Origin: a virus
Lineage: Duplodnaviria > Caudoviricetes
Virus record (IMG/VR): IMGVR_UViG_2593339203_000002
Location: 1 to 64,000 of that record
Reading direction: 5' to 3' (one strand)
DNA length: 64,000 bases
Shown here piece after piece: positions 40,585 to 41,837 of the stretch. The translations under genes and the position numbers were made by a program. How positions within the stretch are numbered: position 1 is the stretch's first letter; each line of letters starts with the position of its first letter. The notes under the pieces are model-generated. The model saw only the letters and a list, made by a program, of their open reading frames with translations, had not been told where the DNA came from and ran no database searches.

Positions 40585-41837
40585 GCCCGCGCCGCGCCCC
40601 ACGGACCCGCCCCTCCAACCGGGCCGTCGTCAAACCGCCCTACCGCGTCCCGACCATGGCCGAGATCGCCGCCCTGCCCTGGAACGGCTTCACCGCCGCC
40701 TCCTCGTTCTCCGGGTGCGGCGGCTCCTCCCTCGGCTATCGCATGGCCGGCTTCCGGATGCGGTGGGCGTCGGAGTTCATCCCGGCCGCGCAGGAGACCT
40801 ACCGGGCCAACGCCCGCCCGTACACCGTCCTGGACACCCGGGACATCCGCGAGGTGACCGCGGAGGACGTCCTCGCGGCGTGCGGCGTGGCCGTGGGGGA
40901 GCTGGACCTCTGGGACGGCAGCCCGCCGTGCGCGTCGTTCTCGACCATGGGCAAGCGCGAAAAGGGCTGGGGCCTGGTCAAGCCGTACTCGGACACCGTC
41001 CAGCGCACCGACGACCTCTTCTTCGAGTACGCCCGTCTCCTCAAGGCACTCCAACCCCGCACGTTCGTCGCGGAGAACGTGAGCGGCCTGGTCAAAGGCA
41101 CCGCGAAGGGCTATTTCCTGGAGATCCTGGCCGCGCTCAAGGCCTGCGGCTACCTGGTGGAGGCCCGCCTCCTGGACGCCTCCCGCCTCGGCGTCCCCCA
41201 GTCCCGGCAGCGGCTCATCTTCGTGGGCGTCCGGGAGGACCTGGACATGCCGCCGGCGTTCCCCCGCCCGCTCCCGTACCAGTACACGGTCCGCGACGCC
41301 CTCCCGGAGCTGCCGCGCCTCGTCCACGACACGTCCGGCGCCCGCGGCCAGGGCGACGTCACCGACCGCCCGTCCCCCGCGATCACCGTCGGCACGGACG
41401 CGATCAACAGCTACCACTTCCGCGTCCTCGACCCCGCCGAGGGCCGGGAGGTCACGCACGACCCGGAGACCGGGAAGAACATCCATATCGGCCGGTACGC
41501 CATCGGGGAGGCCTGGCGCGACACCCCGCCCGGCGGCTCCTCGGAACGGTTCTTCAGCCTGAAGCGGATGGACCCGGACCGGCCGTCCCAGACGATCACC
41601 GCCGAGGGCGGGAACGTCACGAAGGCCTCCGTGACCCACTACGCCGAGGCCCGCAAACTGACGCTCGGCGAGCTCCGGAAGATCGGCGGGTTCCCGGACG
41701 ACTTCCAGCTCACCGGCACCTACGAACAGCGATGGGAGCGCATCGGCCGCGCCGTCCCCCCGGTGATGATGAGCCACATCGCGGCCGCCGTCCGGGACCA
41801 GATCCTCATTCCCCTCCGCGAGCGGGGGGTGATCTGA
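40581..41837 (+). CDS. C5-cytosine DNA methyltransferase family; predicted carboxymethyltransferase
   Basis: FSGCGG (I), GSPPC (IV), ENV (VI), QSRQRL (VIII); motif X reads IGRAVPP instead of GN(A/S)V. Confidence 0.9.
   Translation: MSPRRAPRTRPSNRAVVKPPYRVPTMAEIAALPWNGFTAASSFSGCGGSSLGYRMAGFRMRWASEFIPAAQETYRANARPYTVLDTRDIREVTAEDVLAACGVAVGELDLWDGSPPCASFSTMGKREKGWGLVKPYSDTVQRTDDLFFEYARLLKALQPRTFVAENVSGLVKGTAKGYFLEILAALKACGYLVEARLLDASRLGVPQSRQRLIFVGVREDLDMPPAFPRPLPYQYTVRDALPELPRLVHDTSGARGQGDVTDRPSPAITVGTDAINSYHFRVLDPAEGREVTHDPETGKNIHIGRYAIGEAWRDTPPGGSSERFFSLKRMDPDRPSQTITAEGGNVTKASVTHYAEARKLTLGELRKIGGFPDDFQLTGTYEQRWERIGRAVPPVMMSHIAAAVRDQILIPLRERGVI

Follow-up and report, generated by a model that had tools for sequence, protein, structure and literature searches.

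An arginine in motif X of a Streptomyces prophage CmoX homologue and its probable role in carboxymethyl transfer to DNA cytosines

Canonical SAM-dependent cytosine C5-methyltransferases (C5-MTases) carry Asn in motif X (GN[AS]V), whereas the enzyme considered here has Arg at this position. The question raised by the locus is whether this residue marks the use of a different cofactor. The earlier note on this DNA had proposed that the Arg pairs with the carboxylate of carboxy-SAM (Cx-SAM), that it therefore indicates carboxymethyl transfer, and that it could serve as a searchable signature. The window, i.e., the whole analysed stretch of 64,000 nucleotides from the virus record IMGVR_UViG_2593339203_000002, contains an intact operon of five genes in the order ParB-ParB-CmoX-CmoY-CmoA. 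Its genes and the two motifs central to the question are as follows:

38607..39500, plus strand: ParB-like protein 1, with which the modification operon opens (phrog_723 “ParB-like partition protein,” 2.4e-47)
39790..40584, plus strand: ParB-like protein 2 (phrog_723, 1.1e-46, residues 67-237), whose stop overlaps the CmoX start
40581..41837, plus strand: homologue of CmoX-type DNA cytosine C5-carboxymethyltransferase (PF00145; sequence and fold match to 8yf3_A)
40920..40931, plus strand: SPPC motif with the catalytic Cys, aligned with S95-C98 of SpCmoX (GSPPC at 40917-40931)
41742..41762, plus strand: motif X, IGRAVPP, with the Arg codon CGC at 41748-41750, aligned with R350 of SpCmoX
41840..43249, plus strand: predicted CmoY-type amide ligase, glutamine-hydrolysing and AsnB-like (GATase_6 7e-24, GATase_7 1.4e-19, Asn_synthase 3.9e-44)
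43221..44153, plus strand: CmoA-like carboxy-SAM synthase, predicted (TIGR00740, 4GEK, phrog_4752 4e-52)

The CmoX gene encodes 418 amino acids from the ATG at 40581, and its reading frame (ORF 40542-41837) is open back to a GTG at 40542. The ATG overlaps the stop of the upstream gene as ATGA (40581-40584), and the 418-aa form is present in a public protein collection, on an 8.27-Mb contig; therefore, ATG 40581 is the likelier start. In-frame stops in aligned relatives were considered as possible recoding and rejected, as they proved to be the stop of the upstream gene, taken in by tblastn. Matches to PF00145 (7.1e-53) and TIGR00675 (3.2e-48) placed the product among the C5-MTases. All of the motifs besides motif X were present (FSGCGGSS, GSPPC, ENV, QSRQR, and GFPDDF), in agreement with the earlier statement that catalytic motifs I, IV, VI, and VIII are intact. 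The catalytic Cys, in the context WDGSPPCASF, is C130 when counted from the GTG and C117 from the ATG. The SPPC motif was invariant in an alignment of 33 rows and was found in all 80 best-scoring Arg-type loci; the catalytic residues of the window CmoX were likewise invariant over the 33 aligned relatives, and the frame is intact. The top PDB sequence match was 8yf3_A (phmmer, 4.4e-61). The AlphaFold model (pLDDT 85.9) also had 8yf3 as its top fold match (E 4.0e-29, TMt 0.82), followed by HaeIII (3ubt_A, 2.5e-22), with HhaI chains at ranks 39-44, for which the fold search gave no residue mapping.

Positions 41742-41762 read atc ggc cgc gcc gtc ccc ccg, that is, I-G-R-A-V-P-P, in frame with the C5-MTase ORF, which confirmed the Arg codon reported earlier; the residue is R403 from GTG 40542 and R390 from ATG 40581. 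In phmmer alignments, the column of this Arg holds Asn in HaeIII (IGNAVP), 3G7U (IGNSVSP), and mouse DNMT1 (VGNAVPP), and, in an alignment with the C-terminal 63 residues, in Arabidopsis MET1 (IGNAVPP). The view that Asn is normal at this position thus held for these enzymes, but not for the nearest non-Arg phage relatives (FpV9-like, 33% identity), which have Met (GMSVPP) in 80 of the 80 best-scoring sequences. In 8YF3 the column holds Arg: ERIGRAVPP of the window lies over ERVGRMVPP, and the residue is number 350 of the chain by count on the alignment. HhaI matched only residues 47-255 of the window CmoX in phmmer. When the C-terminal 63 residues served as the query at E up to 10, the matches included 8YF3, MET1, DNMT1, HaeIII, and 3G7U, and neither HhaI nor MpeI was among them; M.MpeI was also absent among the matches listed in the sequence searches and among the 50 best fold matches listed. 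The equivalence of the window Arg to HhaI N304 is taken from a published description (PMC12783734), not from an alignment, and that to M.MpeI N374 rests on the wording of the same paper, in which R350 “mirrors” N374K. The Arg was kept in 80/80 best-scoring viral-contig relatives (49-89% identity) and was invariant in the 33-row alignment. The residues that contact Cx-SAM in SpCmoX were also conserved in the window: F25 corresponds to F56, E47 to E78, F48 to F79, D69 to D101, and Cys-98 to C130.

The role of this residue, as well as its use as a search signature, is already known and appeared in print in December 2025 with a crystal structure. Yang et al. (Nat Commun, December 2025; PMC12783734) described SpCmoX of Synechococcus phage S-B43 as a carboxy-SAM-dependent cytosine C5-carboxymethyltransferase and solved its structure with Cx-SAM (PDB 8YF3). 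According to this paper, R350 takes the place of HhaI N304 and directly contacts the carboxymethyl group of Cx-SAM; the wild-type enzyme accepts Cx-SAM only, and the R350N variant is inactive with either cofactor. In E. coli with SpCmoX, 5cxmdC is reported to form only when cmoA is present, and the target specificity is given as GC (PMC12783734). The aligned R350 therefore supports both the proposed pairing of the Arg with the Cx-SAM carboxylate and its reading as a mark of carboxymethyl transfer. The chemistry and the contact between the Arg and the carboxylate have been demonstrated for this homologue of approximately 36% identity. Thus, the window contributes one more CmoX member only, as publication already covers the signature residue, its mutant, and the linkage to cmoA.

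The linkage was also observed here. A CmoA-like gene was present in the locus of 75/80 best-scoring Arg-type viral-contig relatives, and in 0/80 Met-type and 0/80 Asn-type best-scoring control loci searched with the same flank setting. Each set comprised the best-scoring 80 of one clade, drawn from pools of 143, 442, and at least 531 relatives. Being mutually related, the loci are not independent observations, and their mean lengths differ among the three sets (10.7, 11.8, and 16.5 kb). The Asn-type control was seeded with the MTase of Streptococcus phage IPP52; the MTase of Haloarcula virus HCTV-16, used as an Asn-type seed, gave no relatives in viral_contigs. The expected co-occurrence of GRAV-type MTases with cmoA was thus found, as it was by Yang et al., whose search with SPPC and R350 is reported to have retrieved 5,615 candidates, with 4,257 CmoA genes on their contigs (PMC12783734). 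In the remaining 5/80 Arg-type records, CmoA is absent from the entire record; four of them are fragments of 11-22% completeness, and one is 86% complete. Because of these records, the Arg and a phage-borne CmoA are not strictly coupled. As a searchable signature, the residue works together with SPPC in the published retrieval, but the Arg alone is imperfect.

In a tree of 62 rows, a branch separated the Arg rows from all others, and the count of state changes was two, the minimum possible; the single Arg clade was weakly supported (SH-aLRT 74). The rows comprised the 33 of the alignment, three isolates, 14 Met-type, and 12 Asn-type sequences, and the tree was built by the “quick” method with the motif-X column kept in. 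Left out were 48/80 Arg, 68/80 Met, and 70/80 Asn loci, as well as Yoloswag (intein) and PaBG.

The limits 39790..40584 of ParB-like protein 2 are those of the ORF, and the true start may lie downstream. Neither of the two ParB-like proteins matched Pfam ParB_N, even at E<=1. The product of the CmoY gene begins with (M)CGII, with Cys directly after the start codon, and a class-II glutamine amidotransferase domain is followed by an Asn-synthetase domain; its match to TIGR01536 (6.2e-65) lies under the cut-off of that model. Streptomyces phage TurkishDelight (NC_073473) is a cultured relative. Its gp124 is UniRef/UniProt A0A7T0Q3R0, which Yang et al. present as the exemplar of the second-largest ligase cluster, glutamine-dependent, and for which a soluble enzyme reportedly could not be had (PMC12783734). 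By its domains and 77% identity to this exemplar, the CmoY of the window belongs to the same cluster. The CmoA-like gene lies 1.4 kb downstream of CmoX, two genes on, and its GTG start at 43221 is preceded by GAGG. Its product matched TIGR00740 at 3.8e-28, with 98.8 bits against a curated equivalog cut-off of 193.3, and E. coli CmoA (4GEK) at 1.2e-18 over residues 77-296, the alignment being full-length. In this alignment, E. coli “QKRSML” lies over “AKARAL” of the window, so that the Arg is shifted by one position; approximately 70 extra N-terminal residues are Cys- and His-rich. A scan of 38300-44700 gave no promoter-like sites. It placed a single terminator-like site at 44306-44286 of the minus strand, a yield not above that of shuffled sequences; the scan was uninformative on the operon limits.

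On the basis of sequence and analogy, it is highly probable that ORF 40581-41837 is a member of the CmoX family that uses Cx-SAM instead of SAM, with the operon encoding the pathway as follows. The catalytic Cys of SPPC would attack C6 of cytosine, and the resulting C5 carbanion would take the carboxymethyl group from Cx-SAM. The motif-X Arg, at the Asn site of ordinary enzymes, would bind the extra carboxylate of the cofactor and so select Cx-SAM; with this residue, the Streptomyces prophage enzyme very probably transfers carboxymethyl, not methyl, groups to DNA cytosines. The CmoA homologue two genes downstream would supply Cx-SAM. The AsnB-like enzyme would then most likely adenylate the new carboxyl and amidate it with ammonia released from glutamine, so that the phage DNA would contain 5-carbamoylmethylcytosine. 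This base has been predicted in print, and no report of it was found among the literature matches listed. For this Streptomyces prophage and its TurkishDelight-like relatives, we consider the chances slightly better than even that a glutamine-hydrolysing CmoY turns 5-carboxymethylcytosine into neutral 5-carbamoylmethylcytosine and that the target motif differs from the GC of SpCmoX, the latter because the recognition region is unrelated. In such a scheme, the Arg would explain how a methyltransferase fold was adapted to equip phage DNA with a reactive carboxyl handle. This handle can then be amidated, so that the genome may be hidden from host nucleases.

Other readings of the locus were weighed against this one. 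The enzyme might be an ordinary SAM-dependent 5-methylcytosine MTase, in which the Arg is specific to the lineage and has no effect on the cofactor, while the nearby CmoA serves tRNA modification. The intact set of catalytic motifs would suit such an enzyme, motif X is not always Asn, as the Met of the sister clade demonstrates, and the five Arg-type records with no CmoA are also in its favour. Nevertheless, SpCmoX with the same Arg takes Cx-SAM only, phage S-B43 is reported to lack a CmoB homologue (PMC12783734), and the linkage to CmoA separates the 80 best-scoring Arg-type loci from all 160 best-scoring control loci; we regard this reading as highly improbable. A further possibility is that the divergent CmoA-like protein makes a SAM analogue other than Cx-SAM, so that a different group is transferred. 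The low TIGR00740 score, the shifted Arg, and the extra N-terminal residues ahead of the conserved CmoA domain are what such a protein might display. Against it stands the alignment with the CmoA proteins of E. coli and H. influenzae, which is full-length. In addition, Synechococcus phage RN05-S has a CmoA-like gene beside its SpCmoX-like gene that, as read from its translation, also diverges in the QKRSML stretch, and thus divergence alone is compatible with Cx-SAM synthesis. A carboxylate is what the AsnB-type ligase downstream requires, in keeping with the chemistry of Cx-SAM, and transfer of another group therefore appears very unlikely.

That the locus is a prophage remnant, decaying or catalytically inactive, which modifies no DNA in its host is extremely unlikely. 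The source record is classed as a provirus, and the protein is on record on the 8.27-Mb contig, which would suit a remnant. The CheckV completeness of the record, however, is 100%, the frame is intact with catalytic residues invariant in 33 aligned relatives, and the intact five-gene operon is syntenic with that of the lytic isolate TurkishDelight. The use of Cx-SAM by a functional CmoX-type enzyme remains the preferred reading.

Comparison with SpCmoX revealed a shared C5-MTase fold, SPPC motif, Arg at the Asn position of motif X, and the residues F, E, F, and D that contact Cx-SAM. The clusters are also alike, both having CmoA and an asparagine-synthetase-like ligase with ParB-domain genes nearby; ParBc proteins are described as adjoining CmoX (PMC12783734). 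The identity of the window CmoX to the SpCmoX lineage is approximately 36% (RN05-S compared). A difference lies in residues 235-336 of the window enzyme (between motifs VIII and IX, the putative target-recognition stretch), which are unaligned with SpCmoX, approximately 25 residues longer, and modelled at a pLDDT of about 59-66. Therefore, the published GC specificity is not transferable to the window CmoX, whose target may be other than GC. In addition, the partner ligase of the window has a glutamine amidotransferase domain, whereas SpCmoY is of the glycine-ligating type, and the window element is a provirus of a high-GC actinomycete, Streptomyces.

Another close system is that of TurkishDelight, in which gp121-gp125 have the same order (ParB, ParB, MTase, amidotransferase, and CmoA). 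The window operon is 83.6% identical to its DNA over 90% of 5.6 kb, and the protein identities are 85% for CmoX, 77% for CmoY, and 82% for CmoA, with an identical ERIGRAVPPV stretch. In the TurkishDelight annotation, gp121 is a ParB-like nuclease domain protein, gp122 has 197 aa, and the MTase is named “methyltransferase” only. The TurkishDelight genome is linear and has the cluster at its right end, whereas the cluster of the window runs straight into terminase genes inside the provirus record; for the N-terminal extension of CmoA, the match starts only at residue 73.

The likeness to M.HaeIII, M.HhaI, and DNMT1 extends to the fold and motifs I, IV, VI, VIII, and IX. The engineered enzymes M.MpeI N374K and M.MedI N377K are described as having a positive side chain in place of the same conserved Asn, and a salt bridge from it to the Cx-SAM carboxylate has been proposed (PMC12015181; PMC12783734). 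These variants are man-made, carry Lys, are specific for CG, and retain the ability to methylate with SAM (PMC12015181), whereas the window has a natural Arg, and the natural SpCmoX, unlike them, is reported to use Cx-SAM only (PMC12783734).

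The window derives from a 96.7-kb virus record (class provirus, 100% complete) with one C5-methyltransferase (C5-MTase) match and one CmoA match. The genes concerned are arranged as follows:

38607-39500, ParB-like gene 1 (phrog_723, 2.4e-47)
39790-40584, ParB-like gene 2 (phrog_723, 1.1e-46)
40581-41837, CmoX, the C5-MTase homologue
41840-43249, CmoY, an AsnB-like enzyme with GATase_6/7 and Asn_synthase domains and a Cys right after the start
43221-44153, CmoA, homologue of the carboxy-SAM (Cx-SAM) synthase
44241-44666 and 44663-46306, putative terminase genes, read by position

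In the related Gordonia phage Evaa, CmoA has a terminase gene immediately after it.

The open frame 40542-41837 encodes a cytosine-C5 DNA methyltransferase homologue (PF00145, 7.1e-53; TIGR00675, 3.2e-48). The likely start of CmoX is the ATG at 40581, preferred because of its ATGA overlap with the upstream stop and the GGGGAAG stretch ahead of it; the resulting 418-aa product is the one found in public protein records, where its contig is 8.27 Mb long. Motifs I (FSGCGGSS), IV (GSPPC), VI (ENV), VIII (QSRQR), and IX (GFPDDF) were all found in the protein and did not vary across 33 aligned relatives. In the same frame, positions 41742-41762 (atc ggc cgc gcc gtc ccc ccg) read I-G-R-A-V-P-P, with the Arg codon CGC at 41748-41750; given the ATG start, this Arg is residue 390 (403 if numbered from the first GTG). 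The observation of the earlier note, an Arg in the Asn position of motif X with motifs I, IV, VI, and VIII intact, was thus borne out.

When all PDB chains were searched with phmmer, by far the strongest match to CmoX was 8yf3_A (4.4e-61), followed by HaeIII (8.5e-23). In the alignment, window ERIGRAVPPVMM pairs with 8yf3 ERVGRMVPPLMM, and the 8yf3 Arg paired with the window Arg is chain residue 350, counted from the start of the printed segment. By sequence alignment, this position is occupied by Asn in four further enzymes of known structure, namely HaeIII (IGNAVP), the prophage MTase 3G7U (IGNSVSP), mouse DNMT1 (VGNAVPP), and Arabidopsis MET1 (IGNAVPP). An AlphaFold model made from the 33-row alignment (mean pLDDT 85.9, pTM 0.84) had 8yf3 as its closest PDB fold (E 4.0e-29, TMt 0.82), with HaeIII behind at 2.5e-22.

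The protein in 8YF3 is SpCmoX, encoded by Synechococcus phage S-B43 (Yang et al., Nat Commun 2025;17:281, PMC12783734). According to that study, Cx-SAM is made by the phage CmoA, and SpCmoX carboxymethylates GC sites at C5 of the cytosine. [quoted passage not shown] The Cx-SAM contacts F25, E47, F48, and D69 of SpCmoX correspond to F56, E78, F79, and D101 of the window protein, and by sequence alignment the nucleophile C98 corresponds to C130 (all GTG numbering). The authors searched with the signature "SPPC plus R350" and obtained 5,615 candidates, the contigs of which carry 4,257 CmoA, 2,251 ligase, and 1,660 ParBc genes; in their Discussion, the Arg is said to "mirror" the engineered M.MpeI N374K (PMC12783734). 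In PMC12015181, N374K is accounted for as a salt bridge with the cofactor carboxylate. The mechanism proposed in the earlier note, in which the Arg pairs with the Cx-SAM carboxylate, therefore agrees with the SpCmoX structure and the R350N mutant, and its suggestion of a searchable signature has been realized in the published search. Between these two papers, every element of its inference is already in print, and PMC12783734 contains three of the checks it proposed: alignment to HhaI, mutation of R to N, and co-occurrence with cmoA.

We also examined the co-occurrence in IMG/VR. A scan with the window CmoX matched 149 stretches, of which 143 proved to be relatives; the 80 best of these (49-89% identity) were analyzed. 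Arg was present in the motif-X column in all 80 (G-R-[A/S]-V-P-P, with one VARAVPP), as was SPPC. A CmoA-like gene was detected in 75 of the 80 loci (four diverse CmoA queries, E<=1e-4), ParB-like genes in 73, and an AsnB-like gene in 21, including 15 full-length glutamine-amidotransferase forms. The first control comprised relatives of the MTase of Flavobacterium phage FpV9, an enzyme with 33% identity to the window CmoX; among phage MTases that lack Arg, this group is the nearest. The 80 best-scoring of 442 such relatives all had Met (GMSVPP), and none of these 80 loci had a CmoA-like gene. The second control was built around the MTase of Streptococcus phage IPP52. Of its relatives, which numbered at least 531, the top 80 had Asn in motif X in every case and CmoA in none. 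The association of GRAV MTases with cmoA expected in the earlier note was thus recovered, and 75/80 versus 0/160 is to be read as linkage and not as a rate, because each set is a clade rather than a collection of independent samples.

No CmoA was found anywhere on the records of the five remaining Arg-type loci, one of which is 86% complete and four 11-22% complete. Formation of 5cxmdC in E. coli requires cmoA (PMC12783734), and this experiment shows that a host CmoA is able to supply the cofactor. In a tree of 62 rows, one weakly supported branch (SH-aLRT 74) had all Arg rows on one side, a branch with support of 97 set the Arg and Met rows apart from the Asn rows, and the three motif-X states required two changes, the minimum. 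The Met in the nearest phage relatives without Arg suggests that the Arg-type enzymes are closest to a Met-type lineage, not an Asn-type one. Met-type members include FpV9 (19884-20951), BMBtp14 (1396-2436), and the compared stretches L085-L164, among which no ParB-like or CmoA matches to the window proteins were found.

That the window CmoX is an ordinary methyltransferase is unlikely in view of the SpCmoX data and the linkage to CmoA. There is also a small chance that the window enzymes use a cofactor other than Cx-SAM, which is favored by three features of the window CmoA: its score of 98.8 bits, where the curated TIGR00740 cut-off is 193.3, the "AKARAL" aligned under "QKRSML" of E. coli CmoA, and about 70 extra N-terminal residues ahead of the conserved domain (43221-43440) with Cys and His in the pattern CxC...H...CxxC...C. 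The gene has a GTG start, preceded by GAGG and overlapping the end of CmoY; the TurkishDelight match to its product starts at residue 73 and the Evaa tblastn match at residue 37.

Use of Cx-SAM remains the preferred reading, and we consider the whole scheme, from CmoA through CmoX to CmoY, very probable. CmoA would convert SAM and prephenate to Cx-SAM; CmoX would flip out the cytosine, and its Cys-117 (ATG numbering) would add to C6. C5 would then attack the carboxymethyl carbon of Cx-SAM while Arg-390 holds the cofactor carboxylate, and elimination would release 5-carboxymethylcytosine. Finally, CmoY would adenylate the carboxyl group and amidate it with ammonia from its own glutaminase domain. 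The present analysis showed the Arg, what it aligns with, that it does not vary, and how the genes are linked; the chemistry up to 5-carboxymethylcytosine was demonstrated on a homologue with about 36% identity and would apply by analogy. The activity of the window CmoX, the amidation step, and the target motif are inferred. The term carbamoylmethylcytosine was not found in the literature searched.

The target motif may differ from GC, since the stretch that separates motifs VIII and IX probably serves as target-recognition domain. There, the window CmoX is about 25 residues longer than SpCmoX. Residues 235-336 (41244-41549, GTG numbering) could not be aligned with SpCmoX, and model residues 241-290 (ATG numbering) had pLDDT of 59-66; therefore, the GC specificity of SpCmoX should not be assumed.

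Among isolates, an Arg-type MTase and a CmoA-like gene occur together in TurkishDelight, PaBG, S-CRM01, Erwinia/Dickeya jumbo phages, and Mcat8. The two genes are adjacent in Pseudomonas phage PaBG and Synechococcus phage S-CRM01 and about 14 kb apart in Yoloswag. In Mcat8 (KR093632), a temperate Moraxella catarrhalis phage, the order at 15286-17486 is ParB_N, CmoX-like MTase (motif X ERMGRMVAP, with Arg), and CmoA-like gene, with the terminase directly after; all three are labeled hypothetical in the record, and the CmoA-like product, 23% identical to the window CmoA, was not picked up by the collection-wide search. In Erwinia phage Yoloswag (KY448244, 3055-5163), an intein splits the CmoX homologue (gp43, 703 aa; Arg in motif X, LGRVCVP) exactly at the SPPC catalytic Cys (...DGSPP|C...VVHN|CKGFS; Hint_2 3.4e-08, Intein_splicing 5.6e-07, Pfam). 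In each of the listed records of Erwinia and Dickeya jumbo phages, the CmoX match fell into three pieces, which suggests that these phages share the insertion.

Evaa (OP434461, 1-3952) encodes a CmoA (gp5, directly before the terminase) 49% identical to that of the window, and PF00145 is absent from its whole 61-kb genome. Its gp1 is ParB-like, and gp2 (511 aa), labeled methyltransferase in the record, is a fusion in which an N-terminal ParB domain is followed by a C-terminal domain that belongs to no known family (phrog_5475) and for which no PDB relative was found by sequence. This protein could be a Cx-SAM-using DNA transferase outside the C5-MTases. A preliminary search in phages identified no CmoA-associated adenine-N6 or cytosine-N4 carboxymethyltransferases (PMC12783734).

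In conclusion, the residue and its mechanism were correctly deduced from sequence alone, yet had been published in December 2025. The window block is 83.6% identical at the DNA level to gp121-gp125 of Streptomyces phage TurkishDelight, the gp124 of which is UniRef A0A7T0Q3R0. This protein is the exemplar of the second-largest ligase cluster, for which glutamine-derived ammonia was proposed and the authors obtained no soluble protein (PMC12783734). Through this match, the window is a member of the glutamine-type ligase branch of the published system.
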